A stretch of 64,000 nt of DNA, from positions 7,532 through 71,531 of the forward strand of contig PWGX01000017.1 in assembly GCA_003554615.1 (NCBI GenBank), given 5' to 3'. The DNA comes from Syntrophomonadaceae bacterium. Its GTDB lineage: Bacteria; Bacillota; Dethiobacteria; DTU022. Every line of letters starts with the position of its first letter. Position 1 is the stretch's first letter. The translations under genes and the position numbers were made by a program. Positions 3,415 through 33,293 of the stretch are shown here, piece after piece. The notes beneath the pieces are model-generated. The model made no database searches. It was given only the letters and a program-made list of their open reading frames with translations, and was not told the DNA's origin.

Positions 3415-3433
3415 GATAAATTTAATGGTGCCT

Positions 3434-5657: not shown

Positions 5658-5726
5658 TGCGGTAGTTGCTCTCCTTTCAAAAGTGGGTATTTTGTTGTAC
5701 GCTGGTTTGGCTTAACGGTTCCTGTC

Positions 5727-7202: not shown

Positions 7203-7337
7203 AGACGTGTTCCTGTTTCAATTAATTTTTATTTTTTAAAGGTGTCAAGCAGGGCTGAATGCTCAGGCGGGAAACATTTTCACCTGGATACCGAACTTAC
7301 GCCTAAAGGGGAGCAATCTACATACCGGGCTAAAAGG

Positions 7338-15466: not shown

Positions 15467-15501
15467 AGGTTAGACTGGTATAAAACAAAGGGGGAATTTA
15501 T

Positions 15502-16032
15502 ATGAAAATGTTAGCCCGGGTGATAATGGTTTTTGTGGCGCTAATTTTGATTGGCGCTGCCCTGTTTCTGCTAGCCGTTAAATACAATCTGGTTCCGGGT
15601 CTTGCCCTGTACCTGCCCGGATGGGCTGGAGAAGAAGTTGTGCTTGGGTTTGTAGCGGCATTGGTGCTGATCGCCCTGATTTTGTTAATCCTCGGCTTTC
15701 GCAAATCCAAAGGCCCCGGCAATGCTGTGCTTAAAGGCAGCGAATATGGCGAAGTGGCCATATCGATCCCTGCTATTGAGAATATAGTTTTAAGGGTTAT
15801 CCAGCAAATCCAGGGTCTTAAAGATGTCAGCAGACAGGTTTCTTTTACGCAGGATGGACTGATTATCGCTGTAAAAATCAGGGTTTTGCCCGACGTTGCT
15901 ATGCCGGAGTTGACCAGTGAACTACAGTCGAAGATTAAGGAATATGTAGAAGAGATTACTGGTATAACCGTCCACGAAGTTAAAGTGATGGTCGAGAATA
16001 TAGTTACAGAACAGACCCCATCCAAAAAATAA
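15502..16032 (+). CDS. amaP: Alkaline shock response membrane anchor protein AmaP
   Basis: The product has two N-terminal TM helices followed by an Asp23-like region. Its position directly after asp23 supports the call. Confidence 0.65.
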   Translation: MKMLARVIMVFVALILIGAALFLLAVKYNLVPGLALYLPGWAGEEVVLGFVAALVLIALILLILGFRKSKGPGNAVLKGSEYGEVAISIPAIENIVLRVIQQIQGLKDVSRQVSFTQDGLIIAVKIRVLPDVAMPELTSELQSKIKEYVEEITGITVHEVKVMVENIVTEQTPSKK

Positions 16033-16064
16033 ATCAGAACTTATGTTAGAAGGGGGATCATATC

Positions 16065-16295
16065 TTGTCTGAAATGAACTGGTGGTTAATAATCAGCAAA
16101 CACTGGGGAAAAATCCTGGGCGGCTTGCTGGGGTTGGTATTTGCCCTGTTGGTGGTTAACTATGGATTCTGGTGGAGTATTTTTATATACCTGTGCATCG
16201 GGATCGGGATCTTGATTGGTTGGAGATTGGATCTCAGTAAAGATGTTGGCAGTTTTTTTAGGCGCTTATTTTCAACCAGAGAGGAATCTGATTGA
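16065..16295 (+). CDS. Small membrane protein (DUF2273-like)
   Basis: The gene has a TTG start after an SD. The 76-aa product has two TM helices, and this is the conserved third gene of asp23-amaP clusters in Firmicutes. Confidence 0.6.
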   Translation: MSEMNWWLIISKHWGKILGGLLGLVFALLVVNYGFWWSIFIYLCIGIGILIGWRLDLSKDVGSFFRRLFSTREESD

Positions 16296-16363: not shown

Positions 16364-16780
16364 TTGTCCCGTCGTTTAGCTAGAGAAGCTGCTTTTAAAG
16401 CTCTTTTTCAGGTTGATATTGGCAGGTGCAGGGTAAAACAGGCCCTGATCCGATCTTTGGAAGATTACAAGTTCAACGAAGAAGAAGAGCAGTTCGTAGA
16501 AGAGCTGTTGACCGGTACGGTCGGTAACTGCGAGTCCCTTGATCAAATTATCAAGAAACACCTGGTAAAGTGGGAGCTGGAACGGATTTCCGCCGTGGAT
16601 CGCAACCTGCTCCGGTTGGCCCTTTTCGAAATTATTTATCGTCCCGATATTCCCCCCGCAGTATCGATAAACGAGGCCCTGGAGCTGGCCAAAAAATACG
16701 GCAGCACCGGTGAAGCCGTCGGCTTTATCAATGGAGTGTTAGATCGCGCGGTAGGAGAAGCTTTTGAGAGAGAACCATGA
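16364..16780 (+). CDS. nusB: Transcription antitermination factor NusB
   Basis: The N-terminus SRRLAREAAFKALFQVDI and the segment DRNLLRLALFEIIY..P..VSINEALELAK match NusB. Confidence 0.92.
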   Translation: MSRRLAREAAFKALFQVDIGRCRVKQALIRSLEDYKFNEEEEQFVEELLTGTVGNCESLDQIIKKHLVKWELERISAVDRNLLRLALFEIIYRPDIPPAVSINEALELAKKYGSTGEAVGFINGVLDRAVGEAFEREP

Positions 16781-17936: not shown

Positions 17937-19898
17937 ATGTCCAAAGTATTTTTTAGCAGCTGGAATGGAAAATTAATTGACGAACGAAACAAGAAATCAG
18001 ATGAACGGATTGACCTGAGCCAGTTGGATGTCCCGCCTCAAATTGAAAGCGAAGATCTTAAAGCTTTCGTCGGCTGGGCGGGGCTAATGGTTTTTGATCC
18101 GGAAGTAAATGTAGTCGAATCGTTAAAAGAGTATTTCAGAAATGTCCAGCAGGACTCCTGCGGCCGCTGCATTCCCTGCCGTGCCGGCAGCCAGGTGATT
18201 GCCGACCGGCTGGAAAAGCTGATTGAAGGAAACGGCAGCAGGGAGGATCTGGCTTTTCTGAAGGAGATCAGCAAGCTGGTTAAGGACAGTTCGCTTTGTG
18301 AGCTTGGAATGTCTTCACCGGTTCCCCTTCTTCATGCTCTTGAGCATTTCGAAGATGATTTTTCCGCCTATTTGAATGAAGAACGGCCGCCGGCCGGAAA
18401 CGGCCTCACATACCGGCCGGTCTTGACGGCTCCCTGCCGCAACGGTTGTCCGGCTCATATCAATATTCCCGGGTATATCGAGTGTATCAAAGAGGGAGAT
18501 TACGAAGGAGCGCTGGCGATAAACCGTGAAAAAACACCTTTGGTAGGGACCCTGGGCCGTGTGTGTGTTCACCCCTGCGAATCAAACTGCAATCGGCAGC
18601 CCTATGACGAGTCCCTGTCAATCAGGTTGTTAAAACGGTTTGCAGCAGATTTTGGAGCCAGGAACAATTACGATCAGAAAGACCGCTATTCCAAACCCGG
18701 CCCTAATGCCGATAAAGTGGCGGTCATAGGCGCCGGCCCGGCCGGCTTGAATGCGGCCTACCAGCTGGCCCAAAAGGGTTACAAGGTCATAATATATGAG
18801 GCTCTGCCCGTAGCCGGCGGTATGCTGGCAGTGGGTATTCCCAGTTACCGCCTGCCCCGGGATATCCTTAATACCGAAATCGAACTGGTAGAAAGCCTGG
18901 GCGTGGAAATTAAGTACAATACCAAGATTGGCGAGGACATCCCCCTTGAAAAACTGTGGGATGAAGGTTTTAAGGCCATCTTTATCGCTAACGGCCTCCA
19001 TGAAAGCGCCAACATGGGCTGCCCGGGTGAAGATGCCGGTTACAGGGGCTTTATGCCCGGCGTGGAATACCTGCGCAAAGTCAATCTCGGCGAAAAAGTT
19101 GACATCGGCGACAAGGTAGCAGTAATCGGCGGCGGAAACGTGGCCATGGACTGTGCCCGTTCCGCGGTACGCCTCGGCGTTAAAGAAGTTAACCTGATTT
19201 ACCGCCGCAGCAGGGCGGAAATGCCCGCCAACAAGGCAGAAGTGGATGCGGCAGAGGAGGAAGGAATTAAATTCCACCTGCTTGCCAATCCCACCTCCAT
19301 TCTGGAAGAAGCAAGTTGTGTCAGCGGCCTGCAGTGTATCAAAATGAAGCTGGGAGAGCCCGACGAAAGCGGCAGGCGCAGGCCTGAACCGATCGAAGGG
19401 TCCGATTTTGTGTTGGAAGTGGACACAGTAATTCCCGCTATCGGGCAGGTTGCTGATTTTTGTTATATAACCCCGGAATGCGGTTTTGAACCTACACAAA
19501 AAGGAACCATCCAAACTGATCCCGCCACGATGGAAACCGATCAGCCGGGTGTATTTGCCGGTGGTGACGTTGTCCTTGGCGCTGCTACGGTGATCGAGGC
19601 TATTGCATCAGCCAACCGGGCCGCAGAAGCAATTGACAACTACATCCGGACCGGCAAGAGCAAGCCGAATTCTCAGGTAGTTAAAGAGCAGCATGTTGAA
19701 AAAATGGGTGTTTATAAGGAAGAAGTAGTACCGGAAATGGTCGGTGGAAGAACCCGCCTGGAAGAAGAAGCCTGTCCGGTCGAAATCAGGGTTAAAGGTT
19801 TCGGCGAAGCGGAACTGGGCTTTAAAAATCCATCTGAAGTGATCGACGAAGCGGAACGCTGCATTAAGTGTTTACGCTTGGGTCTGGCCATTTCATAA
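17937..19898 (+). CDS. NAD(P)H oxidoreductase: NuoF-type 4Fe-4S domain fused to GltD-like FAD/NAD(P) module (SfrB-like)
   Basis: The N-terminal segment DSCGRCIPCR..SLCELG is a NuoF C-terminal Fe-S motif. The central Cys cluster and the GAGPAGL and GGGNVAMDCA Rossmann motifs are typical of glutamate synthase small-subunit homologs. Confidence 0.8.
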   Translation: MSKVFFSSWNGKLIDERNKKSDERIDLSQLDVPPQIESEDLKAFVGWAGLMVFDPEVNVVESLKEYFRNVQQDSCGRCIPCRAGSQVIADRLEKLIEGNGSREDLAFLKEISKLVKDSSLCELGMSSPVPLLHALEHFEDDFSAYLNEERPPAGNGLTYRPVLTAPCRNGCPAHINIPGYIECIKEGDYEGALAINREKTPLVGTLGRVCVHPCESNCNRQPYDESLSIRLLKRFAADFGARNNYDQKDRYSKPGPNADKVAVIGAGPAGLNAAYQLAQKGYKVIIYEALPVAGGMLAVGIPSYRLPRDILNTEIELVESLGVEIKYNTKIGEDIPLEKLWDEGFKAIFIANGLHESANMGCPGEDAGYRGFMPGVEYLRKVNLGEKVDIGDKVAVIGGGNVAMDCARSAVRLGVKEVNLIYRRSRAEMPANKAEVDAAEEEGIKFHLLANPTSILEEASCVSGLQCIKMKLGEPDESGRRRPEPIEGSDFVLEVDTVIPAIGQVADFCYITPECGFEPTQKGTIQTDPATMETDQPGVFAGGDVVLGAATVIEAIASANRAAEAIDNYIRTGKSKPNSQVVKEQHVEKMGVYKEEVVPEMVGGRTRLEEEACPVEIRVKGFGEAELGFKNPSEVIDEAERCIKCLRLGLAIS

Positions 19899-19914
19899 CC
19901 GAGGGGAGGGTATA

Positions 19915-21942
19915 ATGATGAAAACAGTAAACTTACAAATTAATAGCAAGAAAGTATTTGCTGAAGAGGGCACGACTATTCTGGAGGCGGCCCGGCAGAA
20001 CGGAATCGACATTCCCACTCTTTGCTACCACCCCCGGTTGGCACCGCTTGGCCATTGCCGTGTCTGTATTGTTGATGTTCAGGGCTTCGACAAGCCGATC
20101 ACATCCTGCGACAATCCGGTTGCCGAGGGAATGGTAGTTGAAACCACAACACCGGAAATCCAGGAAATGCGCGATCAGATCCTGGTCCTTTCTTTAGCGA
20201 CACATCCGTACAAAGACTGCCTGACCTGTGAGCGGACCGGAACCTGTGAACTGCAGGAAAAAGCCTATCAATTTAAAGTTGAACTTCCCGAACAGCTTGA
20301 ACGGGAAGTTCCTGCCGAAAAAGCGGAAGACAATCCGTACATAGTTCGTGATGAGGAAAAATGTATCCTCTGCGGCCGCTGTGTGCGGGTATGCCGGACC
20401 GGCCCCGGGTGCTATGTTTATGAATTAGTTGGCAACGGGGTTAATACCAGGGTGGTGCCCTACAAAGACGGCAAAGAAGTATCCATGGAAGAAGCAGGTT
20501 GTATTTTTTGCGGGCAGTGTGTTGATGTCTGCCCCGTAGCCGCCCTGACCGAAACAGGAAGGGCAGCCGCAGGAAGAGAATGGGAACTGTCCCATATTCC
20601 CGGGGTTTGCGTGGAATGCTCGATTGGATGTTTCCTCGAAAGGCAGGCATCAGGCGACGACCTGATCAAGGTCACCGTTCCTGCCGAGGGGGAAAAAGTG
20701 AGCTGGATCTGCCAGAAAGGCAAGTTTGGCGTCCACAGGCCGGAACCGGATCCCGTGGAAGCACCGCTGCAGCTTGAAGGCAGTGATTACAAAGAAGTTG
20801 CTTACGATGAAGCCGTAAAAGAAACGGCCCGGACCCTCCTTGATATTAAGGAAAAATCAGGACCGGGTGCTGTGGCCGTAATGGCTTCCGGCAAGCAGAG
20901 CAATGAAGAAAGTTACCTGCTGCAAAAACTGGCCCGCTCGGTTTTAGGTACCGCCAATGTTGACCTGGGCGTTGAAAAAGCCTGGGGCCAGGCTTATCAG
21001 GGCCTGTATAAAATTATCGGGCCGGACGTCTGCGGACCTACCCCGGCCACCATGCAGGAGTGCGAAGCGATTATCGTGATCGGGTCGGGGCTGGAAGAAA
21101 GCCACCCGGTAGCCGCTTTTGCCGTCCAGCAGGCCGGACGTTTTGGCGATGCGGTAATAGTGCGCATCAGCGATAAAAAAGAGGAGCTTAAGAGCGCCTT
21201 TAAAGAGATCTGTGTCGAATACAAGCCCGGCTCCGAAACTGCTGTGCTGAAAGGACTCACTGCCGCCATGCGCGGGGATGATCTTTCAGGGCCGGCCAAA
21301 GAGGCGGGCGTTGCGGCCGAAGACTTGCAAAAAGCCGCAGAACAGGTGGCAAAAATGAGAAGCTGCACAGTGGTTGGTTCTTCATTTTTTGAAAACGCCG
21401 ATGATGCAGCTGTAGAAGCTCTGCTGGCCATGGCCAAAGCCGGAGGACAACTTGAATACGGCCGAAGTGACCTTCTGCTTCTGTCCCGGTACAGCAACGC
21501 TGCCGGCACTATCGTCCTGGGTGGATCGCCATCTTTCGGGCCCGGATTTGTGGCTCTTAACGGAGAAGCCGGTTTAAGCCGCGAAGAAGTTGCTTCTGCG
21601 GCTGTAAACGGCAAAGTCAAGGGCGCACTGGTTTTTGGAGACGGGTTCTCCGATTCAAAGCCGGGAGGTTTAGATTTTCTGGCTATTTCATGCATTAACC
21701 GCAGGGAAGTACCGGAGAAAAGCGACCTGGTTTTCCCCGCCCAGCCGCCGGAACGTAAAAATGGGACTTTCACCAATTCATCAGGAGAGATCTGCATCAA
21801 TAAAGCAGCTCTGGAAGGCGGGCCAGAATCGCCGCAGGACTGGAAATTAATCTGTGATCTGGCCGAAGCAATGGGTGAGAAATGGAATTATTCTTCCCTG
21901 GATGATGTCCGGGAGGAAATGCAGGGGTATATTCCCGGCTAA
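19915..21942 (+). CDS. NuoG/FdhA-N-terminal-like Fe-S protein with a degenerate molybdopterin domain (SfrA-like)
   Basis: The product has a 2Fe-2S ferredoxin N-terminus (CYHPRLAPLGHCRVC), two 4Fe-4S motifs (CILCGRCVRVC, CIFCGQCVDVC) and a MopB-type cluster (CVECSIGC...C). The catalytic Cys/Sec-His is missing and there is no C-terminal MGD-binding domain. Confidence 0.75.
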   Translation: MMKTVNLQINSKKVFAEEGTTILEAARQNGIDIPTLCYHPRLAPLGHCRVCIVDVQGFDKPITSCDNPVAEGMVVETTTPEIQEMRDQILVLSLATHPYKDCLTCERTGTCELQEKAYQFKVELPEQLEREVPAEKAEDNPYIVRDEEKCILCGRCVRVCRTGPGCYVYELVGNGVNTRVVPYKDGKEVSMEEAGCIFCGQCVDVCPVAALTETGRAAAGREWELSHIPGVCVECSIGCFLERQASGDDLIKVTVPAEGEKVSWICQKGKFGVHRPEPDPVEAPLQLEGSDYKEVAYDEAVKETARTLLDIKEKSGPGAVAVMASGKQSNEESYLLQKLARSVLGTANVDLGVEKAWGQAYQGLYKIIGPDVCGPTPATMQECEAIIVIGSGLEESHPVAAFAVQQAGRFGDAVIVRISDKKEELKSAFKEICVEYKPGSETAVLKGLTAAMRGDDLSGPAKEAGVAAEDLQKAAEQVAKMRSCTVVGSSFFENADDAAVEALLAMAKAGGQLEYGRSDLLLLSRYSNAAGTIVLGGSPSFGPGFVALNGEAGLSREEVASAAVNGKVKGALVFGDGFSDSKPGGLDFLAISCINRREVPEKSDLVFPAQPPERKNGTFTNSSGEICINKAALEGGPESPQDWKLICDLAEAMGEKWNYSSLDDVREEMQGYIPG

Positions 21943-22067: not shown

Positions 22068-23315
22068 GTGCTGCCTTTAAATGATATGAACAAACAACTG
22101 CCGCTGTTCACAGTTTCCGAGATAAACCGTTATGTGAAAGGTTTGATTCGAAGCGATCCGCGCCTGCGCGACCTGTGGGTAACCGGTGAAATTTCTAATT
22201 TCAAACATCACCGCTCCGGTCATATGTACTTTACAGTAAAAGACAGTTCATCTGCCCTGCGCTGTGTTTTTTTTCGCCGGGACAACGTGCAATGCATTTT
22301 TCAGCCTACCGACGGTATGGAAGTAATCCTGCACGGCTACCTGTCGGTTTATGAGCCTGGCGGCCAGTACCAGCTGTATGTGCAGGAGATGCAGCCGGCC
22401 GGTATGGGTTCGCTTTATGTCGCCTTTGAGCAGTTGAAACAAAAACTGGAAGCAGAAGGCCTGTTCAAGTCGGAGCACAAAAAAAAGCTGCCGCGGATTC
22501 CCCGGAAAATCGGCCTGGTTACCTCACCCAGCGGTGCAGCCCTGCAGGATATAATTACCACGATTAAGAAACGCTTACCCTATGTCCAGCTACTGGTTGT
22601 TGAAAGCCTGGTTCAGGGGCCCGGAGCGGCAGCCGATCTAATCAGGGCCCTGGATATACTGAACAAAAAAGACGATATTGATCTGATTATTCTGACCCGG
22701 GGCGGAGGTTCACTGGAAGACCTGTGGCCTTTTAACGAAGAAAAGGTAGCCAGGGCCATTTTCAGGTCTTCAAAACCGGTTATATCCGCCGTTGGCCATG
22801 AAACCGACTTTACTATTGCCGATTTTACGGCGGATCTGCGGGCCCATACCCCTACAGAAGCAGCGGCTGCGGCAGTGCCCGTCTATGATGAACTGCTGGC
22901 AGAAAATGATCAACTGCGAAGCCGGGCCGGCCTGGCCCTAAAAAACCGGGTCCTGCAGGAAAAACAGCGGCTGGATCATATTGTAAGCGAACGGTTTTTC
23001 CGGCGCCCGCTGGAAAGGATCAAAACTGCAAAGAACTATTTGGAAGAGACTGAAACCAGGCTGAAACGGGAAATGATCCGTTATCTGCAGTTAAAAGGAA
23101 TCCAGCTGACAGCCCTTGTGGATAAATTGGAAAGCTACAGCCCGCTTAAGGTAATGAATCGCGGCTATACTTTTTGCCGGGATCAGGAAGGAAATATTAT
23201 CCGTTCTGTTAAAGATATACGCATCGGCCAGTTGTTGCAGCTGAGCTTGAAAGATGGCAGGGCGGATTGCCGGGCAGAAAAGGTTGAGGAGGACTGCATC
23301 GTTGACGAAGAATAA
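22068..23315 (+). CDS. xseA: Exodeoxyribonuclease VII large subunit
   Basis: The segments FTVSEINRYVKGLI..L..LWV.GEISNFK.H.SGHMYFT.KD and GRGGGS.EDLW.FN are typical XseA sequence. The start may be the ATG at 22086. Confidence 0.92.
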   Translation: MLPLNDMNKQLPLFTVSEINRYVKGLIRSDPRLRDLWVTGEISNFKHHRSGHMYFTVKDSSSALRCVFFRRDNVQCIFQPTDGMEVILHGYLSVYEPGGQYQLYVQEMQPAGMGSLYVAFEQLKQKLEAEGLFKSEHKKKLPRIPRKIGLVTSPSGAALQDIITTIKKRLPYVQLLVVESLVQGPGAAADLIRALDILNKKDDIDLIILTRGGGSLEDLWPFNEEKVARAIFRSSKPVISAVGHETDFTIADFTADLRAHTPTEAAAAAVPVYDELLAENDQLRSRAGLALKNRVLQEKQRLDHIVSERFFRRPLERIKTAKNYLEETETRLKREMIRYLQLKGIQLTALVDKLESYSPLKVMNRGYTFCRDQEGNIIRSVKDIRIGQLLQLSLKDGRADCRAEKVEEDCIVDEE

Positions 23316-23328
23316 GGATAACCGGAAA

Positions 23329-23583
23329 ATGGAAGAAATGACTTACGAGGAAGCAGTAAAAAAGCTCGAAGAAATCGTCAGCCGCCTGGAGAATGCTGAA
23401 ATACCTCTGGAAGAGTCCCTTTCCTCATTCCAGGAAGGGATTGCCCTTTCCAGGTACTGCCGGGAAAAACTGGCTGAAATAGAATACAAAGTCGAGTATT
23501 TGTTAAAGGAAGAACAACAGCAGTCCCTTGATTCGACAGGCAGCCCGGCGGAAGAAGATGATGATACCGGAGATGAATCATGA
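23329..23583 (+). CDS. xseB: Exodeoxyribonuclease VII small subunit
   Basis: I chose the ATG at 23329. The sequence YEEAVKKLEEIVSRLENAEIPLEESLSSFQEGIALSRYC matches XseB. Confidence 0.9.
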   Translation: MEEMTYEEAVKKLEEIVSRLENAEIPLEESLSSFQEGIALSRYCREKLAEIEYKVEYLLKEEQQQSLDSTGSPAEEDDDTGDES

Positions 23584-24464
23584 TCGAGATTGATCAATAC
23601 CTTGCTCAAAAAAAAGAGATTGTCAACAGGGCTTTAAAAGAATGCCTGCCTGATACCGGGCCAAAGGCGGTCAGGGAGGCGATGAGTTACAGCCTTGAAG
23701 CCGGAGGAAAGCGCCTGCGCCCGATCCTGACTCTGGCCGGTGCCGAAACCCTAAGCTGTGATGATCATGATGTAATCGATGTGGCCTGTGCCCTGGAGCT
23801 GGTCCACACCTATTCCCTGATCCATGATGATCTACCGGCCATGGACGACAGTGATTTGAGGCGGGGAAAGCCAACCTGCCACAAAGTATACGGGGATGCC
23901 GTTGCAGTGCTGGCCGGAGATGCCCTCCTGACCCTTGCTTTTGAGCTGTTATCCCGCTACGGTTTGAAACCCGGACGGGCGGAAAAAGCGGCGCGGATCG
24001 GCTCCGAGCTCGGCAAAGCGGCCGGGGTAACCGGCATGATCGGAGGTCAGGTCCTTGACCTGGAGGCAGAGGGACGTGATTTGACTCTTCTGGAAATTGA
24101 AACATTATCGGCCATGAAAACAGGAGCACTGCTGAAAGCTTCTGTTATTTGCGGGGCTATAGCAGCCGATGCCGGCAGCAAGGAGCTGGAGCTGCTGGAC
24201 CGGTATGCTTCAAAGATTGGGACCGCTTTTCAGATCATTGACGATCTCCTGGATGTGGAAAGCTCAGCCGAAGCGCTGGGCAAACCTACGGGGGCAGACC
24301 AGGACCGCTTTAAGCCTACTTTTCCGGCCGTGCTGGGTCCAGATGAGGCCAGATCCAGGGCAGAAAGCCTTTATAACGAAGCAATTATGGCTTTAACAGA
24401 TTTAAACCGGCCGGTGGAGCTTTTAACCGGACTGGCAAAAAAAATGGTCTTCAGAAGTAAATAA
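23580..24464 (+). CDS. ispA: (2E,6E)-farnesyl/geranylgeranyl diphosphate synthase
   Basis: The FARM motif LIHDDLPAMDDSDLRRGK and the SARM motif FQIIDDLLD are both present. The ATG overlaps the xseB stop. Confidence 0.92.
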   Translation: MIEIDQYLAQKKEIVNRALKECLPDTGPKAVREAMSYSLEAGGKRLRPILTLAGAETLSCDDHDVIDVACALELVHTYSLIHDDLPAMDDSDLRRGKPTCHKVYGDAVAVLAGDALLTLAFELLSRYGLKPGRAEKAARIGSELGKAAGVTGMIGGQVLDLEAEGRDLTLLEIETLSAMKTGALLKASVICGAIAADAGSKELELLDRYASKIGTAFQIIDDLLDVESSAEALGKPTGADQDRFKPTFPAVLGPDEARSRAESLYNEAIMALTDLNRPVELLTGLAKKMVFRSK

Positions 24465-24553
24465 CTCCAGGGGCTATAAAATAACGGCAACCGTGCTGGG
24501 GGAGAAGACCGTTATAGTCTGCAAGATGTAGAAAAAACTATAAAGCTGACCCG

Positions 24554-24582
24554 TTGTCTGCATACGGAGGTTGTGCTATGAT
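24554..24582 (+). promoter_or_regulatory. Candidate promoter immediately upstream of the structured RNA (TTGTCT-17 nt-TGcTATGAT)
   Basis: TTGTCT lies at 24554-24559 and the extended -10 TGcTATGAT at 24574-24582. The predicted TSS is near 24590, a few nt before the terminal helix. Confidence 0.45.
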
Positions 24583-24589
24583 ATAGTCC

Positions 24590-25155
24590 TGAAGCATGCA
24601 TAAGTGGTGCAGTATTCTAGTTGGCGCCCCTTCCCGAAAACGGGCCTAAAAATCCGTTAAGGGCACATCGATGAAGTTCCTGGTGGCGGCTGCCGAAGCC
24701 CAGTTGGGAGCTGCTGCTGGGAGTTAAGAAGGACGGGGCGATCTACAAAGGCATGTAGGCGTTGACCCTGCCTTCGTGGAGACCCAATGTTCGTGGCGGA
24801 TTGTTGAGAAACAAAAGGCTACGGCTTGGGAAGAACCTGTATGCGGTAAGAAGCTGTGTACAGTGTAGCCTGCCTTGAGTGGAAAGGGTAGAGGAGTAAA
24901 ACTCTGAAACCCTTTCTGCAAAAGAGGCTAGGGGAGATCAGGCGCCAGAGTGGAAATCTCCTAGACTGCTCTCGTAAGAGAAGTAAGCCAGGGATTAAAG
25001 TGTGAGCTAAGTGGTAATCCAGCTCCGTTTGTGGCGACACGATGGGGATAGTCTTAAAAGGGAACTGCCTGACAGGCGACTGCAGGTGACTATCCGGGAA
25101 AACCTGCTGGACCTAAGCCGCAAAGTTTACCTGGCTTGCTACCACTTATGCTTCT
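24590..25155 (+). ncRNA. ole: OLE (ornate, large, extremophilic) RNA; boundaries approximate
   Basis: The 711-bp gap between ispA and the oapA-like gene has no + strand ORF of 60 aa or more. An 11-bp terminal helix (24598-24608 pairing with 25141-25151) encloses about 554 nt with many internal helices, including a GNRA-capped hairpin. The gene order xseA-xseB-ispA-[RNA]-TM protein-dxs-tlyA-nadK-recN is the published OLE context. Confidence 0.85.
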
Positions 25156-25175
25156 TTGTACAAAGGTGATGGCTA

Positions 25176-25757
25176 TTGTCCAACAGTAAAAACCGAAGCA
25201 GAATCCGCTGGATCATTGTCATTTCTTTGTGGACATTTTTCCTGGCTGTGGCCCTCAGCTTTGTATCACATTATTTTTTGAACGAACTGCAGTCGATCGC
25301 GTTGTCTTTTGTGATCCTGCTGCTGGTAGTCATGCTGGGCATCGTTTTTGACCTGATCGGTACCGCGGCAGCCGCGGCTGACATAGCGCCGCTTAACGCC
25401 AAGGCGGCCCGAAGAGTTGCAGGCGCCAAATGCGGTGTCAACCTGGTTAAGAACGCCGAACGGGTAGCGACATTCTGCAACGACGTGGGCGGAGATATCA
25501 GTGGTATAATCAGCGGGACCCTGGTGACAGTAATCGTAATCAAGCTGGTGGTTACATTCTCACATCAGCAAGCTGAATTTTACCTGGGAATTTTGCTGGC
25601 CGCTTTTGTTGCAGCCCTTACAGTAGGCGGTAAAGCCTGGGGTAAAGTAATTGCCATTAATTATTCAACTGAAGTGATTTTACTGGTTGGATTGATGATT
25701 ACCAAATTGCAAAGGCCATTAAGCTGGTTCAGTAAGGGTGAGATAAACCAGAGGTGA
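25176..25757 (+). CDS. oapA: OLE-associated protein A (small polytopic membrane protein)
   Basis: The gene has a TTG start after the SD AAAGGTGA. The 193-aa product has 4-5 predicted TM helices. It lies directly 3' of the structured RNA with no recognisable terminator between them, and its stop overlaps the dxs start (GTGA). Confidence 0.8.
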   Translation: MSNSKNRSRIRWIIVISLWTFFLAVALSFVSHYFLNELQSIALSFVILLLVVMLGIVFDLIGTAAAAADIAPLNAKAARRVAGAKCGVNLVKNAERVATFCNDVGGDISGIISGTLVTVIVIKLVVTFSHQQAEFYLGILLAAFVAALTVGGKAWGKVIAINYSTEVILLVGLMITKLQRPLSWFSKGEINQR

Positions 25758-27652
25758 TTGTAATGGATGGTGTGCTTGGCAGTATGAACCTGCCTGATGA
25801 TCTGAAGAATATGACCGGGGAACAGCTTGAAAAAGCCGCTTCTGAAATACGCGAATACATGATCAGGACGGTGGCCGATAACGGTGGCCACCTGGCGGCA
25901 AGCCTGGGGGTGGTTGAACTGACCCTGGCCTTGCACAGCACCTTCAACAGCCCCACCGACCGCATTATTTGGGATGTCGGCCATCAGAGTTATCCCCACA
26001 AGTTGCTTACAGGCAGATGGGAAGAGTTTGCCACCCTGCGCCAGCTTGATGGTTTGTGCGGTTTTCCAAAGCCTTCTGAGAGCGAACACGATCCTTTTCT
26101 GACCGGGCACAGCAGTACTTCAATTTCGGCGGCCCTGGGCCTGGCTCAGGCCAGGGATTACAATGGTGAAGATTACAAGATTATTGCTGTAATCGGCGAC
26201 GGCGCCCTGACCGGGGGAATGTCTTTTGAAGCCCTTAACCACGCCGGCCATATCAAGGCCAATATAACGGTTATTCTAAACGACAATAAGATGTCGATCA
26301 GCTCAAACGTCGGCAGTATGTCTGCTTACCTGGCCCGGATCCGCTCTGATCCAAAATATTCTAGACTAAAGGACGATTTCGAAAGCTTTGTAGGCCGGAT
26401 CCCTGTGGTAGGAAAGAAAGCTCTTAATTATGCCGACAGGGTCAAGGGCGGGCTTAAATACCTGGTTGTGCCGGGCATGATCTTCGAAGAGCTCGGCTTT
26501 ACTTATTTTGGCCCCATTGACGGTCATAATATAGCTGCAATTAAAAATACCCTCCGGCAGGCCAATCAGATGAAAGGGCCGGTCATGATCCACGTGGTGA
26601 CAGAAAAAGGGAAAGGGTACCACTACGCAGAAAAATCACCGGAAGTTTTCCACGGAATCGGTCCTTTTGATTTAAACAACGGCTTGCTCAAGAAAAAGAA
26701 AAGCGCTTCGTACACAGAAATTTTTGGCCGGACCCTGATCAAGCTCAGCCGTGAGAACCCGAAAATTGCGGCCATTACGGCGGCCATGACCTCGGGTACC
26801 GGCCTGAGAAATTTTGCCCGGGAATTTCCGGAACGGTTTTATGATGTAGGGATTGCCGAACAGCATGCGGTAACTATGTCCGGGGCTTTGGCTGCCGGCG
26901 GAATGCAGCCGGTTGTAGCCATTTACAGCACCTTCCTGCAAAGAGCCTATGACCAAATTTTACATGATGTCTGCATGCAAAACCTGCCCGTTGTATTTGC
27001 CGTTGATCGCGCCGGTATAACCGGCGAAGACGGAGAAACTCACCAGGGTTTATTTGATCTCAGTTTTCTGCGCAGCATCCCCAAAATGTCCATAATGGCG
27101 CCTTCCAATGAAAACGAACTCCAGCACATGCTGTTTACGGCATTAAACTATTCCGACGGTCCTGTGGCCCTGCGCTACCCGCGCGATAAAGTGGAAGGAG
27201 TAGACCTTGAAGAGCCGCATATTTTACCCTGGGGCAGGGGCGAGTTGCTTCGGGAAGGCCGGGATCTGCTGATCGTTGCCGCCGGAACGGTCGTCAAGCA
27301 GGCCGTAGAGGCTGCCGAAAAACTGACCCGGCAGGGTATTGATGCAGCGGTGATCAATGCCCGTTTTGTGAAACCTTTGGACAAAGAGCTGATTGCTCTA
27401 TGGGCCCGCAGGTGCGGGCGGGTTTTGACCGTAGAAGAAAATGTCCTGGCCGGCGGTTTTGGAAGCGGCGTTCTCGAACTGCTTGCCGGTGAAAGTTTGT
27501 CGGTGCCGGTAATAAGGCTCGGCATAGGCGATCAATTTGTCGAGCACGGTTCCCGGGCTAAATTACTTTCTCATTTCAAACTTGATGCCGGGGGAATTTT
27601 TAATGAAGCCCTTGCCTTTGTCGGTACCGGGGCTGTGAAGGGTCAGAGTTGA
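25754..27652 (+). CDS. dxs: 1-deoxy-D-xylulose-5-phosphate synthase
   Basis: The motifs GGHLAASLGVVELTLALH, WDVGHQSYPHK, the TPP-binding GDGALTGGM and IAEQHAV are all present. Confidence 0.95.
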   Translation: MIVMDGVLGSMNLPDDLKNMTGEQLEKAASEIREYMIRTVADNGGHLAASLGVVELTLALHSTFNSPTDRIIWDVGHQSYPHKLLTGRWEEFATLRQLDGLCGFPKPSESEHDPFLTGHSSTSISAALGLAQARDYNGEDYKIIAVIGDGALTGGMSFEALNHAGHIKANITVILNDNKMSISSNVGSMSAYLARIRSDPKYSRLKDDFESFVGRIPVVGKKALNYADRVKGGLKYLVVPGMIFEELGFTYFGPIDGHNIAAIKNTLRQANQMKGPVMIHVVTEKGKGYHYAEKSPEVFHGIGPFDLNNGLLKKKKSASYTEIFGRTLIKLSRENPKIAAITAAMTSGTGLRNFAREFPERFYDVGIAEQHAVTMSGALAAGGMQPVVAIYSTFLQRAYDQILHDVCMQNLPVVFAVDRAGITGEDGETHQGLFDLSFLRSIPKMSIMAPSNENELQHMLFTALNYSDGPVALRYPRDKVEGVDLEEPHILPWGRGELLREGRDLLIVAAGTVVKQAVEAAEKLTRQGIDAAVINARFVKPLDKELIALWARRCGRVLTVEENVLAGGFGSGVLELLAGESLSVPVIRLGIGDQFVEHGSRAKLLSHFKLDAGGIFNEALAFVGTGAVKGQS

Positions 27653-28485
27653 AAAGCAGCCGTCAAAAAAAACGCCTCGATCTTCTCCTGCACAGGCTGA
27701 AGCCGGAACTGAGCCGGAGCCGAATCCAGTCGGAAATAATGGCCGGAAAAGTCCTGGTTAACGGATCTGTATGTGATAAACCCGGGACCCTGGTGGAAGA
27801 AAGTGCAGAAATAAAACTCCTTGAACCGGACAACCCTTACGTGAGCCGGGGCGGGCTGAAGCTGGAAAAAGCCCTGGAAGATCTGGCCATGACCGTCGGG
27901 GGCCTGGTCGTCCTTGATGTCGGCGCTTCAACCGGGGGATTTACCGATTGTTTGCTGCAGAACGGCGCCCGCCGGATTTATGCTCTTGATGTTGGATACG
28001 GCCAGCTGGATTACAGCCTCCGCCGCAATCCGGCAGTAGTGGTTATGGAGCGTTTCAATGCCCGCTTCCTGAAACCTGAAGATATACCGGAAGTTCCTGA
28101 TTTGGCCGTAATTGATGTTTCGTTCATTTCACTGTTAAAAGTTTTGCCCGTCCTCTGCCGCCTTGAGATACCGCATGTCCTGGCCCTGGTTAAACCACAA
28201 TTTGAAGCGGGGAAAGCAGATGCCGAAAGGGGTAGGGGCGTAATCCGGGACCCTGACTTACACTGCCGGGTTTTAACGGATATCATCGAAGATGCCTGCA
28301 AAACGGGGTACTGCTGCCGGGATATAACTTTTTCCAAATACCCGGGGCCCAAGGGGAACATTGAATATTTTGGATACTTTTCAAGAGAAAAAGCTGGGGT
28401 ATGCAAGTGCCGGGAAGATTATAAAGAAAAAACAGCAAAGACTGTAGAAGAAGCCCATCTATTGCTGCTGAAAGAGAAGAAATAA
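27649..28485 (+). CDS. tlyA: TlyA family rRNA (cytidine-2'-O)-methyltransferase
   Basis: The product has an S4-like N-terminus (RLDLLL..RSRIQSEIMAGKVLVNG) and an FtsJ-type SAM-binding motif (LDVGASTGGFTDCLL). Confidence 0.88.
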   Translation: MKSSRQKKRLDLLLHRLKPELSRSRIQSEIMAGKVLVNGSVCDKPGTLVEESAEIKLLEPDNPYVSRGGLKLEKALEDLAMTVGGLVVLDVGASTGGFTDCLLQNGARRIYALDVGYGQLDYSLRRNPAVVVMERFNARFLKPEDIPEVPDLAVIDVSFISLLKVLPVLCRLEIPHVLALVKPQFEAGKADAERGRGVIRDPDLHCRVLTDIIEDACKTGYCCRDITFSKYPGPKGNIEYFGYFSREKAGVCKCREDYKEKTAKTVEEAHLLLLKEKK

Positions 28486-28571: not shown

Positions 28572-29423
28572 ATGAAAGAAATAGGTGTTATCCCCAACTG
28601 GCATAAAAGCAATACTACCCTGGTTGTAGATAAGATAAAAAAATTTTTTAGCCAGCGCCGGATACCTCTTCATGTTGTTGACAGCGATCAGGCTGATTTC
28701 TACAGCAGCGTGTCCCTTGCCGAACAACTTTCCGAACTTCATAACAGGCTGGAAATGATCATAGTGGTCGGCGGAGACGGCACTATTCTCAGGGTGGCCA
28801 GGGATTTGGCCGGCTGGGATGTGCCGGTTTTGGGCATAAACCTGGGGCACAAGGGTTTTCTGGCTGAAATAGAAGTCGAACAGATGGAGCGGTTCCTGCA
28901 ATATATTGCCACCAGGCAGTACGATTACCAGGATCGGATGATGCTTGAAGCAAAACTTTACCGCAGGGATGAAGAACTGGGTTGTTACCTGGCCCTCAAT
29001 GATATTGTTGTGGCCCGCGGCCCTTTTTCCCGCAACATAAAAGTGGATTCATTTATCAACAACGACTTCATGGAAAGCTATTTTGGAGACGGCATAATCA
29101 TTTCTACTCCCACCGGTTCAACCGCTTACTCTTTATCGGCGGGCGGGCCCATAATCAACCCGGTCATGGAGCTTTTTGTAATTACACCAATCTGCCCGCA
29201 CAGCCTCTACAACCGCTCGGTTATAGTTGACGGCTCGGACACGATCAGTTTAAAAGTCGACTCCCGCCAGGTCCAGGTAGTTTTAACGGTTGATGGTCAG
29301 GTCCGCTTTGCCCTCGAGGACGACGACCGTATCCTGATCTGCCGGGCCAAACAAAAAGTTAAACTGGTTTGTTTCCATGAAAACTCCTTTTACAGGTTAC
29401 TGCATCAAAAGTTAAAGGCATAA
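28572..29423 (+). CDS. nadK: NAD kinase
   Basis: The motifs GGDGTILR, NLGHKGFL and STPTGSTAYSLSAGGPI are present. Confidence 0.92.
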   Translation: MKEIGVIPNWHKSNTTLVVDKIKKFFSQRRIPLHVVDSDQADFYSSVSLAEQLSELHNRLEMIIVVGGDGTILRVARDLAGWDVPVLGINLGHKGFLAEIEVEQMERFLQYIATRQYDYQDRMMLEAKLYRRDEELGCYLALNDIVVARGPFSRNIKVDSFINNDFMESYFGDGIIISTPTGSTAYSLSAGGPIINPVMELFVITPICPHSLYNRSVIVDGSDTISLKVDSRQVQVVLTVDGQVRFALEDDDRILICRAKQKVKLVCFHENSFYRLLHQKLKA

Positions 29424-29443
29424 ATTTAAGGAGGAGCAACTAA

Positions 29444-31156
29444 ATGCTTGTGGAGCTGCGGGTTTCTAATTTTGCATTAATCGAAGATCTCAGCTTTACC
29501 TTTAGTTCCGGCTTAAATGTATTAAGCGGCGAAACCGGGGCCGGCAAGTCTGTGGTGATAGGAGCGATCGGCCTGCTGCTTGGTGAAAGGGCTACCGTGG
29601 AACAAATCCGCCAGGGCAAAGACAATGCCTATGTGGAAGGGGCTGTCTACCATGAACAGGCCGGCCAGAATCAAATAGATGGCCTTTTGGAGAAGGCCGG
29701 AATCGAGAAATCAGATGAACTGATCATTGCCCGCGAAGTTTACAGCAACGGTCGCAGCGTGGCCCGGGTGAACGGCAGGGCTGTTCCGGTTTCGTTTTTA
29801 AAAGAAATGGGCCGGTACCTGGTTGATCTGCACGGCCAACATCAGCATCAATCCCTGCTGCGTCCCGAAGAACACCTGGAGCTGCTTGATTCATTCGGAG
29901 GCGAAAAGATCAGGACATTAAGAAACGCACTTGAAGAAATGTCCCGCAAAAGGCAGGACTTGCAGAAAGAGCTGTCCTCCCTGGGCAGCAGCAGCTCCGA
30001 ACGTGAAAGGCGCCTTGATGTATACGAATTTCAAATCAATGAAATTAAAAATGCAGGTCTGCGGCAGGGTGAGGATGAAGAACTGGCTGCACGGGAAAAA
30101 GTCCTTGCCAATGCTGAAAAATTGTGGAACCTCACCGCCGATGCTTATGCCGATCTGTATGCCGGAAGTGATGATGGTATGACCGAAGCGGTAATCGACC
30201 GGTTCAACAGGGCCAAACGCTTCCTGGATGAAGCGGCCGGGATCGATCAGAACCTGGTTCCCATGCTTGATCTTCTGGAGAGTGCTGCGGCCCAGCTGGA
30301 GGAAACATCGCATGAACTTCGCGATTACCAGTCCAGGCTTGAATTTGATCCGGCCGAGTTGAATATGATCCAGGAACGCCAAAACCTGATCGGTGATTTG
30401 AAACGGAAATATGGTTCCTCAATTGAAGAAGTTCTTGAATTTGCCGCCCGGGCGGAAGAAGAAATGGATCGACTCAGAAACAGTGAGGAAACGGCCGCAC
30501 GCCTGGAACAGGAAATTGGCGATCTGGAAAACCGGATGATGGAACAAAGCCTGCAGCTGCGCAAGCTGCGCCGGGACACGGCCGAAAATATTGAGGCTTT
30601 ACTTGAAGAATGCCTGCAGGAGCTGGCCCTTCCCAACGCCCGCTTTGAAGTCAAGTTTACTGAAAAAAAGGAGCTGACTTCAAAAGGGTTGGACCAGGTT
30701 GAATTTATGTTCAGCGCCAACCGCGGCGAAGATGTTAAACCTTTGACCAAGATTATCTCAGGCGGCGAGGTTTCCAGGGTGATGCTGGCCCTTAAAACGA
30801 TCCTGGCCAGGCAGGATATGGTGCCGACCCTGATATTTGACGAAGTCGATGCCGGGATCGGGGGAGCGACGGTACAGGCGGTAGCTGAAAAGCTGGCTCA
30901 CCTCTCTATGCACCATCAGGTCTTGTGCGTTACACACAGCCCCCAGATCGCCGCCATGGCCGATTCTCATTACAGTCTGTACAAGGAAACCGTTGATGAA
31001 AGAACCTTGACCAGGGCGGCCCTGCTCGACTCATGGCAGAGGCGGGAAGAACTGGCTCGTATGCTGGACGGGGCCGGAATCGACCAGGTCAGCCTGCAAC
31101 ATGTCGACAGCGTCCTGGAAAGGGCTCGCCGTTTTAAAGAACAGTTTGCGGGTTGA
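29444..31156 (+). CDS. recN: DNA repair protein RecN
   Basis: The N-terminus LVELRVSNFALIEDL..F..GLNVLSGETGAGKS is typical of RecN. A long coiled coil follows, then the C-terminal SGGE.SR..LA and FDEVDAGIGG motifs. Confidence 0.95.
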   Translation: MLVELRVSNFALIEDLSFTFSSGLNVLSGETGAGKSVVIGAIGLLLGERATVEQIRQGKDNAYVEGAVYHEQAGQNQIDGLLEKAGIEKSDELIIAREVYSNGRSVARVNGRAVPVSFLKEMGRYLVDLHGQHQHQSLLRPEEHLELLDSFGGEKIRTLRNALEEMSRKRQDLQKELSSLGSSSSERERRLDVYEFQINEIKNAGLRQGEDEELAAREKVLANAEKLWNLTADAYADLYAGSDDGMTEAVIDRFNRAKRFLDEAAGIDQNLVPMLDLLESAAAQLEETSHELRDYQSRLEFDPAELNMIQERQNLIGDLKRKYGSSIEEVLEFAARAEEEMDRLRNSEETAARLEQEIGDLENRMMEQSLQLRKLRRDTAENIEALLEECLQELALPNARFEVKFTEKKELTSKGLDQVEFMFSANRGEDVKPLTKIISGGEVSRVMLALKTILARQDMVPTLIFDEVDAGIGGATVQAVAEKLAHLSMHHQVLCVTHSPQIAAMADSHYSLYKETVDERTLTRAALLDSWQRREELARMLDGAGIDQVSLQHVDSVLERARRFKEQFAG

Positions 31157-31178
31157 TCCGCTTCCGGGAGGGGAAATA

Positions 31179-33293
31179 ATGCTTCTTGAGAATATGATGA
31201 CCAGCAATTATGCCACGCTTCGGCCCGGTGACAAGCTGGAAACGGCCGTTCAGCGCCTTAGAAACAGCCGGCGTGACGGCCTGCCCGTCTTACACGAAGA
31301 CGGTTCGCTTGCCGGCATTTTTACCAAGACCAACCTTTATGATGCCCTTCTAAAAGGATGCAACCTTGATCAGGCGGTCGATCCCTATTACAACCGCAAC
31401 GTAGTAAAAATAAGCAAAGACCTGACCTATGATCAGGTCATAGATACCGTGCACCGCATCCCGGTCGGAACCGGGGTTGTCATTGACAGTTCAGGTTCTG
31501 TGGTAGGCCTGTTCACCAAGGTAGAGCTCATAACCTCACTTTTTAAAGAAGAGAGGATGCTTAACACCAGGTTGACAGCAATGTACCAGGCCATGCACAA
31601 TGCCCTGGTATCTGTTAACGATAACGGGCGGATCAATTTTGCCAACCGTTCAGCCGAGCAGCTTTTTGGTATCAAAAACAGCGCTGTAAAAAACAAGCTC
31701 CTGGAGGAAGTTCTGCCCGGGTTTGATATGAGCCCGGTCCTTGAAAAAGGGATGGTGGAAATCGGGGCCAACTATGCCACTTCCAAATTTACTACCGTAG
31801 TTAACAAAACTCCTCTAATTGATAACGGCCGGGTAGTTGGGGCGCTGGCTATTTTTCAGGATATAACCGACCTGGAATCGATTGCCGAAGAAATGGAAAC
31901 TGTTAAAAGGCTGAACCAGACCCTGAGGGCGGTCCTCGATATTGGCTACGATGCCCTGGTGGTTGTTGATGAAGAAGGGCTGATCGTTTTGGTTAACCGG
32001 GTATTTTTAGACTTTGTCCGTCAAAAAGAAGAAGCAGTTATATCAAAACCGGTTCACGAGATTCTTGAAAACAGCCGCCTCCAGGTGACAGCAAAAACGG
32101 GCGTACCCGAGTTGAACGATATCCAGTTTATTGAAGGAAAGCCCTATGTCGTATCCAATCTTCCCATTACCAGGGATGGAAAAGTAATGGGGGCTGTTGG
32201 GAAAATTAGCTTCAGGCGGGTTGACGAACTACGCGATCTGGCCGAAAGGCTGGAAGCGATGGACAGCCGGCTGGCCCATTTCCAGGAAGAGTTAAAGAAA
32301 GCGCGGTTCAGTGAACGGCCGTACCAGTTTGAAGATATCGTTACCATTAACCCCGGGATGCAGGCAGTGATCCGGGAAGCGCGGCAGGCTGCCCAGGGCC
32401 ACTCCACGGTGCTAATCAGCGGCGAGAGCGGAGTGGGCAAGGAACTGATGGCCCAGGCTATTTACCAGGCTGGTCCGCGCTGTAATGGGCCTTTTGTCAA
32501 AGTAAACTGTGCCGCCATTCCTGAAAACCTTCTTGAGTCGGAGTTTTTTGGATACGTCCAGGGTGCTTTTACCGGGGCCCAGCCCGGGGGAAAGCGGGGC
32601 CGACTGGATATGGCTGACGGCGGGACCCTGTTTCTCGATGAAATAGGGGATATGCCCCTGACCATGCAGGGCAAGCTGCTGCGGATTTTGCAGGATCAGA
32701 CTTTCGAGCGAATCGGGGGGACTTCGACCATTAAAGTTGATACCCGGTTTATTGCCGTTACCAACCAGGATCTGGAACAAAAAGTGAGGGAAGGCAAGTT
32801 TCGCGAAGACCTGTATTACCGGCTTAATGTCATACCGGTCCATATCCCGCCTTTACGGGAACGGCCGGAGGATATTTTGCCCCTGGTTAACGCATTTCTA
32901 CGCAAATATAACGATATTTTCGGAATGCAGGTCAGCGATATCTCACCGGAAGCTTTGGCTGCTTTGCGGTTTTATAACTGGCCGGGCAATATCCGGGAAC
33001 TGGAAAATGTTGTGGAACGGGCCATGAACTTTACTGATGAAGATGTGATTAGAATTGATCACCTGCCGCCCCACCTGCGCAAAGCAGGTTCCAATTTTTG
33101 GCAAGATGAGAATGCCGGGCCTTCCGGTGAGCAGGTTGTTCCCGCTTACCGCTGGAAAAGAGAAGAATCTGAACGGGATGCTATCATCGGGGCTCTGCGG
33201 GATGCCGGGGGCAACAAGAGCAGGGCAGCCCGGTACCTGGGGATCAGCCGCTCCTGGCTTTATGAAAAGATAAACCGTTATAATATCAAGTAA
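31179..33293 (+). CDS. Sigma-54-dependent transcriptional activator with N-terminal CBS pair and PAS domains
   Basis: I chose the ATG at 31179, which follows GGGAGGGG. The product has a CBS pair and PAS-like regions. The AAA+ core carries GESGVGKE and the sigma-54 contact loop GAFTGA, and a Fis-type HTH (NKSRAARYLGISRSWLYEKI) closes the protein. Confidence 0.88.
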   Translation: MLLENMMTSNYATLRPGDKLETAVQRLRNSRRDGLPVLHEDGSLAGIFTKTNLYDALLKGCNLDQAVDPYYNRNVVKISKDLTYDQVIDTVHRIPVGTGVVIDSSGSVVGLFTKVELITSLFKEERMLNTRLTAMYQAMHNALVSVNDNGRINFANRSAEQLFGIKNSAVKNKLLEEVLPGFDMSPVLEKGMVEIGANYATSKFTTVVNKTPLIDNGRVVGALAIFQDITDLESIAEEMETVKRLNQTLRAVLDIGYDALVVVDEEGLIVLVNRVFLDFVRQKEEAVISKPVHEILENSRLQVTAKTGVPELNDIQFIEGKPYVVSNLPITRDGKVMGAVGKISFRRVDELRDLAERLEAMDSRLAHFQEELKKARFSERPYQFEDIVTINPGMQAVIREARQAAQGHSTVLISGESGVGKELMAQAIYQAGPRCNGPFVKVNCAAIPENLLESEFFGYVQGAFTGAQPGGKRGRLDMADGGTLFLDEIGDMPLTMQGKLLRILQDQTFERIGGTSTIKVDTRFIAVTNQDLEQKVREGKFREDLYYRLNVIPVHIPPLRERPEDILPLVNAFLRKYNDIFGMQVSDISPEALAALRFYNWPGNIRELENVVERAMNFTDEDVIRIDHLPPHLRKAGSNFWQDENAGPSGEQVVPAYRWKREESERDAIIGALRDAGGNKSRAARYLGISRSWLYEKINRYNIK

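Follow-up and report, generated by a model that had tools for sequence, protein, structure and literature searches.

A full-length OLE RNA gene with a truncated P9 arm, next to oapA, in a Syntrophomonadaceae genome

What occupies the 711-bp gap between the end of ispA (24464) and the TTG start codon of the next + strand gene (25176) in a Syntrophomonadaceae bacterium? The question arises from a 64,000-nt stretch of contig PWGX01000017.1 (assembly GCA_003554615.1), which in its entirety is called the window here and from whose first nucleotide all positions are counted. An initial annotation, made from the sequence alone, had pointed to the gap, to the absence of any + strand open reading frame (ORF) of 60 aa or more within it, and to OLE (ornate, large, extremophilic) RNA as its likely content. 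The gap length is borne out by the gene coordinates, and the ORF listing for 24465-25175 contains no + strand ORF of at least 60 aa. The segment 24588-25161 (+) is almost certainly an OLE RNA gene, specifying a noncoding RNA of about 570 nt. The OLE call is thus correct, and the initial annotation was right to treat the class as previously described: the RNA class is already known, its context is canonical, and the locus holds no new kind of element. As OLE is among the largest bacterial noncoding RNA classes with an unresolved biochemical function, each well-defined locus is nevertheless useful.

The identification is carried foremost by the covariance model. When the whole window was compared with Rfam 15 using cmscan, the OLE model RF01071 matched 24588-25161 (+) with an E value of 3.7e-137; its score of 478 bits far exceeds the gathering score of 50, and its span agrees well with the roughly 24.59-25.15 kb that had been predicted for such a match. 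The alignment spans model positions 1 to 616 of 616 and is not truncated, so the gene is full length. The only other match at the gathering threshold is a tRNA at 51382, assigned by ARAGORN as tRNA-Pro(GGG); at the same thresholds, the window gave no match to ROOL, GOLLD, or the raiA motif. The 574-nt segment is also unusually well folded for its composition, with a minimum free energy of -245.5 kcal/mol compared with -191.3 +/- 6.6 kcal/mol for 100 dinucleotide shuffles (z = -8.2), and none of the 100 shuffles folds as well. There is no evidence against the OLE identification.

To place the gene among its relatives, the invariant 16-mer GGGCACATCGATGAAG was sought in one genome per GTDB species. 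This gave at least 120 loci, at 89 of which an OLE homologue is present. Among the matches listed, the closest relatives are metagenome-assembled genomes titled Syntrophomonadaceae (L118 and L066) and Bacillota (L081), and the nearest relatives come from sediments and digesters, not from the gut clade TANB77. OLE RNAs belong to anaerobic and extremophilic Bacillota; these genome titles, and the SL_*KL_*_SED names (taken below as soda-lake sediments) of the closest metagenome contigs, agree indirectly with such a host. The window RNA was then aligned with 74 full-length OLE RNAs from other genomes; the resulting alignment of 75 sequences, termed A1, is the basis of the structural comparisons below. 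About 130 of its columns are invariant and about 100 more are nearly so, and the window shares all of them, with GGGCACAUCGAUGAAG, GUAGCC, CCUAG, GGAUUA, and GGAAAC as examples of invariant blocks. RNAalifold derives 157 consensus pairs from A1, 115 of which show compensatory double changes, and the window makes 152 of the 157 canonically.

These data also bear on the possibility that the gap is protein coding and its RNA structure incidental. Small ORFs do exist there, namely two on the - strand (24724-24921, 65 aa, and 24819-25040, 73 aa) and one on the + strand (25011-25169, 52 aa), and the longest stop-free stretch in the window OLE reaches 97 codons. However, each of these frames is stop free over at least 80% of its length in only 12 to 18 of 135 OLE homologues, on which ground the coding potential of ORFs within OLE was rejected. 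Conservation follows the compensatory base pairs rather than codons, length variation among the OLE RNAs of A1 is restricted to stem tips, and the segment scores as highly as stated against an RNA model. A coding origin of the conservation is therefore vanishingly improbable, and the OLE RNA gene stands as the reading pursued here.

If the gene is OLE, which of its helices can be placed in the window? The initial annotation had paired nine helices by eye. All nine segment pairs are present at the positions given, with every pair canonical, and only some of them belong to the conserved structure. Helices 1 (24598-24608 with 25141-25151), 4 (24837-24841 with 24859-24863), 5 (24882-24888 with 24910-24916), 7 (24970-24981), and 9 (25046-25053 with 25088-25095) hold up well: their covariation in A1 is 0.655 versus 0.219 for shuffled columns, a level reached by none of 500 shuffles and not approached by slid controls (0.14 to 0.17), with 84% of cells paired and 857 double-change cells. 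Helix 1 corresponds to the terminal helix P1, helix 4 to the base of P8, and helix 5 to P9.1 plus the P9 tip. In P1, which joins a 5' strand at 24598-24608 to a 3' strand at 25141-25151, compensatory changes occur at 10 of the 11 pairs, one of which is GC in 31, AU in 21, and UA in 6 of the aligned RNAs.

Helices 2, 3, 6, and 8, in contrast, covary no better than shuffled columns (0.150 versus 0.150, with 245 of 500 shuffles reaching the observed value) and were dropped as conserved structure. Helix 2 (cccg-aaaa-cggg, 24633-24644) overlaps covarying helices, as does helix 6 (CUAGGGGAGAU/AUCUCCUAG), which is paired in 59% of cells; helix 3 (GGCUAC/GUAGCC) is paired in only 70% of cells, and helix 8 (GGAUUA/UAAUCC) overlaps two covarying helices. 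Given the conservation of their sequences, helices 2 and 8 are kept as candidate alternative pairings. For helix 8, nearly every one of the 75 OLE RNAs has complementary segments at GGAUUA (24992-24997) and UAAUCC (25015-25020), with 92% of cells paired but hardly any covariation, and this pairing could represent an alternative conformer or a tertiary or intermolecular pairing of the unresolved domain 2.

In place of four local hairpins, the consensus structure contains long-range helices that the initial annotation lacked, as it did the conserved promoter and the truncated P9 described below. OLE RNA is known to fold as two domains joined by the P3/P3.1 helix, and the 5' strands of the helices closing domain 1 (P3/P3.1 and the next two) lie at 24609-24635 (+) in the RNAalifold structure of A1. 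The consensus dot-bracket pairs GCAG at 24609-12 with 24965-68, UCUAG at 24616-20 with 24960-64, UGGCG at 24622-26 with 24944-48, and CUUCCC at 24630-35 with 24931-36; column pair 50/536, within one of these helices, is GC in 18, UA in 17, and AU in 17 sequences. Judged from the alignment, these four predicted helices are the P3/P3.1 region that closes domain 1, and they are mutually exclusive with helices 2 and 6. This correction of the by-eye secondary structure is part of the value of the locus.

The remaining hairpins follow the family consensus. P4 (24639-24658, +), a hairpin of the Rfam consensus, has a stem that covaries (GC in 33 and AU in 29 sequences at one pair) and an A-rich loop, CCUAAAAAUCC, that is invariant in all 75 sequences. 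This loop has been described as dimer contact B1, formed by A-A pairing between OLE molecules (PMC12286853, PMC12265935). P7 (24784-24830, +) and P8 (24835-24864, +) are both present. Two further hairpins are recognizable from sequence and consensus structure: P13 (25025-25045, +), with a GCGA tetraloop of the GNRA type at 25034-25037 and a single bulged U, and P14.1 (25068-25086, +), with a GCGA tetraloop at 25076-25079 and a single bulged A. Binding of the protein OapB requires a GNRA loop and a 1-nt bulge, and P14.1 is a secondary OapB site in Halalkalibacterium halodurans (PMC7936274); the P13 hairpin is accordingly the expected, predicted OapB docking site in the window.

How, then, does this OLE RNA depart from the family? 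The difference lies in P9 (24873-24927, +). Its base and P9.1 are intact, and of its distal part only the hairpin GGAGU-AAA-ACUCU remains, at 24893-24905. In the cmscan alignment, 3 nt at the P9 tip stand in place of 44 Rfam consensus positions. Measured from the invariant anchor GUAGCCUGCCUUGAG to the invariant anchor GCAAAAGAGGCUAG, P9 spans 38 nt in the window, the shortest among 84 sampled RNAs, 76 of which have 74 to 91 nt. A central palindromic tetranucleotide, mostly GGCC, is found in 71 of the 73 long P9 stems checked and is absent from the window, where the loop is AAA. The P9/L9.3 loop makes a symmetric kissing contact between two OLE molecules, bridge B3 (PMC12286853), and the tip of the P9 arch has been called a "fourth dimerisation centre" (PMC12265935). 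The other published dimer contacts are intact: the loop nucleotides GCCCA of P5 and GGCAU of P6, like the A-rich loop of P4, fall in invariant columns of A1. As the palindromic P9 loop is common and not universal, its lack is compatible with OLE membership, and the short P9 makes the window form a modestly interesting natural variant, this being its sole real difference from typical OLE.

Loss of the P9 arm could alternatively be taken as a sign of degradation, with the locus a decaying, nonfunctional OLE remnant; the 44 missing consensus positions and the shortest P9 among those sampled would agree with this. Against decay, all invariant family nucleotides are kept, the consensus pairs are nearly all canonical, the promoter is conserved, and oapA is intact and its product 100% identical in several independent assemblies. 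The short-P9 architecture is moreover maintained across relatives at 77-95% identity, and the residual P9 stem covaries. This persistence, together with the covarying P9 remnant, argues for purifying selection and not decay, which leaves a degraded remnant extremely unlikely and favors a functional OLE RNA gene with a shortened arm.

The short P9 is shared. The window, L118, L081, and L066, all with a short P9, are mutual nearest neighbors, whereas the short-P9 forms L037 (Thermovenabulum), L087 (Symbiobacterium), L006 (Salisediminibacterium), and L060 (gut Clostridia) have long-P9 nearest neighbors, which implies that P9 was truncated independently at least five times. A scan for the two anchors at a spacing of 28 to 56 nt recovered 88 short-P9 metagenome contigs, many of them from digesters and from SL_*KL_*_SED sediment samples, names that we take to denote soda-lake sediments. 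The closest of these contigs is 94.9% identical to the window OLE, and 36 of the 88 score above 380 bits against it. It can be proposed, as an evenly balanced call, that the window represents a coherent and environmentally widespread OLE subtype, full length except for the lost distal P9 arm and kissing loop, with L118, L081, L066, and many of the 88 contigs as further members. Should this be true, and should the subtype not yet have been singled out in the literature, it would provide a natural deletion series in which the P9 arch and bridge B3 are dispensable for core OLE function; alternatively, short-P9 lineages may use a different oligomeric state. Comparison of short-P9 with long-P9 OLE could in this way test whether the kissing-loop contact seen by cryo-electron microscopy (cryo-EM) matters.

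Does the RNA have a transcription unit of its own? A sigma-70-type promoter was found by consensus scan at 24554-24582 (+), with a -35 element TTGTCT at 24554-24559, a 17-nt spacer, and an extended -10 element TGcTATGAT at 24574-24582. The -10 element ends about 7 nt ahead of the RNA 5' end, and transcription is predicted to start at about 24589-24591. About 29 close relatives have the same arrangement (TTGTCT or TTGAGA, 17 nt, TGnTATGAT or TGTTATAAT), with an unchanging spacing to the P1 sequence CAUAAGUGGUGCAG that follows it, while the flanks cannot be aligned and the upstream gene differs, being ispA in some and FolD-like in many. In H. halodurans, a proximal OLE promoter is experimentally active and 5' ends were mapped near P1 (PMC3413148), with which the position of the window promoter agrees.

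Two observations concern the region just upstream. The neighboring gene is FolD-like in L126, L127, L134, L156, L158, L165, L167, L189, and L198 and is ispA in the window, L129, L142, L151, and L211. Between ispA and the promoter, 24481-24531 (+) reads as 16 codons and a stop (ITATVLGEKTVIVCKM*) that resemble the FolD C-terminus (...VTTTVLCKHTVMACELQ) encoded in many close relatives immediately before the OLE promoter. By this resemblance, a rearrangement probably left the segment behind as a remnant of the 3' end of folD. No intact folD was found between nusB and xseA; in many Bacillota, folD occupies the position before xseA. Among close short-P9 relatives, promoter, OLE, and oapA are constant, and from this comparison the ole-oapA module appears to behave independently of its upstream neighbor. 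The locus therefore has further value as a clean example of an ole-oapA unit with a sharply conserved promoter.

The downstream side raises the question of whether the RNA might act mainly in cis, as a structured leader of oapA-dxs-tlyA-nadK-recN, and not as a stable, trans-acting ribonucleoprotein RNA. The terminator scan found no + strand intrinsic terminator between OLE and oapA, the oapA ribosome-binding site AAAGGUGA (25162-25169, +) starts 11 nt past P1, and oapA overlaps dxs, so that transcription from the OLE promoter should read into the operon. However, H. halodurans accumulates OLE RNA as one highly stable species (half-life about 3 h), and the RNA still works with OapA after being moved to a distant locus (PMC3413148). 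At about 570 nt, with about 25% of its nucleotides invariant, the RNA is also far beyond any known leader, and the RNA-oapA pair is constant among relatives while the upstream gene varies. A predominantly leader-like role is for these reasons very unlikely, and a noncoding RNA acting in its own right is preferred.

The partner of this RNA is encoded immediately after it. The initial annotation had placed a small transmembrane protein here, a view that is confirmed and can be made specific: the 193-aa product of 25176-25757 (+) is OapA (OLE-associated protein A), identified by position, DxxxD motif, and predicted fold. An oapA-homologous ORF with 31-85% identity lies directly downstream and on the same strand at 142 of the 148 OLE loci with enough sequence, and DxxxD is present in 141 of these 142 homologues. 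In the window protein, residues 102-107 read NDVGGD, giving the motif D103-VGG-D107, which is invariant in 60 database homologues and is considered distinctive for OapA (PMC11332333). The TTG start is supported because an identical 193-aa protein is annotated in public assemblies.

The fold of OapA may be approached through prediction. Five to six hydrophobic stretches are discernible (approximately residues 9-34, 33-71, 104-130, 132-155, and 157-176); four transmembrane helices are given in the literature. Basic residues cluster in the N-terminus (SKNRSRIR) and in a loop (KAARRVAGAK). The Pfam CNNM profile matches the window protein with E = 2.7e-4 and 21.1 bits, below its cutoff of 28.4, and matches 11 of 20 homologues, and a sequence-profile search of OapA against the PDB returned only chance-level matches to CoaBC (E = 0.8 to 1.4). 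An AlphaFold2 model consists entirely of long helices (predicted local distance difference test score [pLDDT] 73, predicted template modeling [TM] score 0.60). When this model was compared with the PDB by Foldseek, the top four matches were to archaeal MtCorB and bacterial CorC (7M1T, 7M1U, 7CFF), with a probability of 0.99 to 1.00 and TM scores of 0.46 to 0.54, and the probability falls to 0.14 at the fifth match. The modeled protein is thus assigned a CNNM/CorB-like predicted fold, a relationship published earlier for H. halodurans OapA (PMC11332333).

What might the RNA and its protein do together? From published family biology, the OLE RNA would be abundant and stable and would be tethered to the cell membrane by OapA, a membrane protein of four helices whose fold resembles that of CNNM/CorB proteins. 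OLE and OapA, joined by OapB on the P13 GNRA hairpin, by OapC, and by bS21, would form a ribonucleoprotein particle that would aid cells exposed to short-chain alcohols, to cold, to Mg2+ in excess, or to poor carbon sources. Membrane localization, the stress phenotypes, the OLE dimer, and the analogy to MpfA have all been published (PMC12265935, PMC12286853, PMC11332333), and it has been proposed, hypothetically, that P3 spans the membrane (PMC12265935). The most likely mechanism, a hypothesis with about an even chance of being right, is that domain 1 of OLE would be the cytoplasmic regulatory module of a divalent-cation (Mg2+) transporter formed by OapA, in which it would replace the CBS and CorC domains of the all-protein relative MpfA/CorB.

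Several points weigh against this picture. The literature does not settle what OLE does biochemically, which keeps the mechanism hypothetical. The OapA model is of moderate confidence, its Foldseek E values range from 0.013 to 0.31, and its Pfam CNNM match is below threshold. Lacking the P9 kissing loop, the window RNA does not allow the published dimer architecture to be transferred unchanged, and a dimer, if formed, would have to form through the A-rich loop of P4 and the loop contacts of P5/P6. Lastly, Pfam scans of about 60 ORFs found no gene for OapB (KOW/SBB) or OapC (L7Ae type) in the 64-kb window; as these genes are normally unlinked to ole, their absence here is uninformative.

The genes around the RNA agree with the context expected of OLE. 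Pfam and NCBIfam assignments bear out the order that had been proposed: nusB (16364-16780) upstream, then xseA (22068-23315), xseB (23254-23583), ispA, the RNA, oapA, dxs, tlyA (27649-28485), nadK (28572-29423, +), and recN (29444-31156, +). The farnesyl diphosphate synthase gene ispA (23580-24464, +) is supported by Pfam polyprenyl_synt (E = 1.1e-57) and by NCBIfam NF045485 (339.5 bits, cutoff 275), and dxs (25754-27652, +) by NCBIfam TIGR00204 (875 bits); dxs overlaps the oapA stop codon and belongs to the same operon. Upstream of the OLE locus are also efp and, just before nusB at 15035-16295 (+), two Asp23-family (YqhY-like) genes and a gene for a DUF2273 small membrane protein. Such a gene set is typical of ole neighborhoods, and yqhY is one of the most frequent ole-associated genes (PMC12265935).

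Other features of the window may be recorded alongside. In 28572-31156 (+), recN directly follows nadK with no argR/ahrC between them, and a sigma-54 activator with CBS and PAS domains comes next (31101-33293). About 18 kb past ispA/dxs, a second isoprenoid-pathway gene (43500-45842, +) encodes a 780-aa protein in which IspH/LytB is fused to four S1 RNA-binding domains resembling RpsA. From the TsaD-like gene to xseA, 17937-21942 (+) encodes a GltD-like NAD(P)H Fe-S flavoprotein and a molybdopterin Fe-S protein of the NuoG/formate dehydrogenase type. At 2155-8141 (-) and 9246-11009 (+), a cluster resembling type IV pilus or type II secretion systems (PilC-like T2SSF, PilM, two prepilin-type N-methylation proteins, an A24 prepilin peptidase, and a PilB-like ATPase) is interleaved with the shikimate genes aroE, aroK, and aroQ. 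Four + strand ORFs, at 14456-14914, 1017-2153, 51545-52375, and 59139-59774 (152, 378, 276, and 211 aa, respectively), have no Pfam match at E <= 1e-5.

When the locus is placed beside known systems, full-length OLE RNAs such as those of H. halodurans and Clostridium acetobutylicum are the closest. The window resembles them in its invariant nucleotides, in P1 to P8 and P10 to P15, in the proximal promoter, in the adjacent oapA, in the isoprenoid, DNA-repair, and nadK neighbors, and in the GNRA-plus-bulge OapB sites; it differs from them in P9, at 38 nt rather than 74 to 91 nt, without the distal P9.3 arm and the GGCC-type kissing loop of B3. A shortened P9 is shared with OLE "variant 1" (Fernando and Breaker 2024, PMC11332333), a form in which P7, P8, and P9 are all shortened and the OapB-site nucleotides are often missing, and which is common in the gut clade TANB77. 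Assignment of the window to this variant was nonetheless rejected, as its RNA retains P7, P8, and the two GNRA/bulge hairpins and has a bit score like those of full-length OLE RNAs.

Outside the OLE family, the window OapA resembles the CNNM Mg2+ transporters MpfA, CorB, and CorC in the predicted fold of its transmembrane domain and in weak Pfam CNNM similarity, and OapA and MpfA have overlapping Mg2+ phenotypes with anticorrelated distributions (PMC11332333). In contrast to those transporters, OapA has no CBS or CorC domains, carries a DxxxD motif that is absent from CNNM domains, and is paired with a 570-nt RNA. At the level of the RNA, ROOL, GOLLD, and the raiA motif are, like OLE, large structured noncoding RNAs with unresolved biochemical function, and their sequences and folds are unrelated to it. 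To our knowledge, none of the three has a dedicated membrane-protein partner, unlike OLE. ROOL, GOLLD, and OLE all appear as homo-oligomers in cryo-EM.

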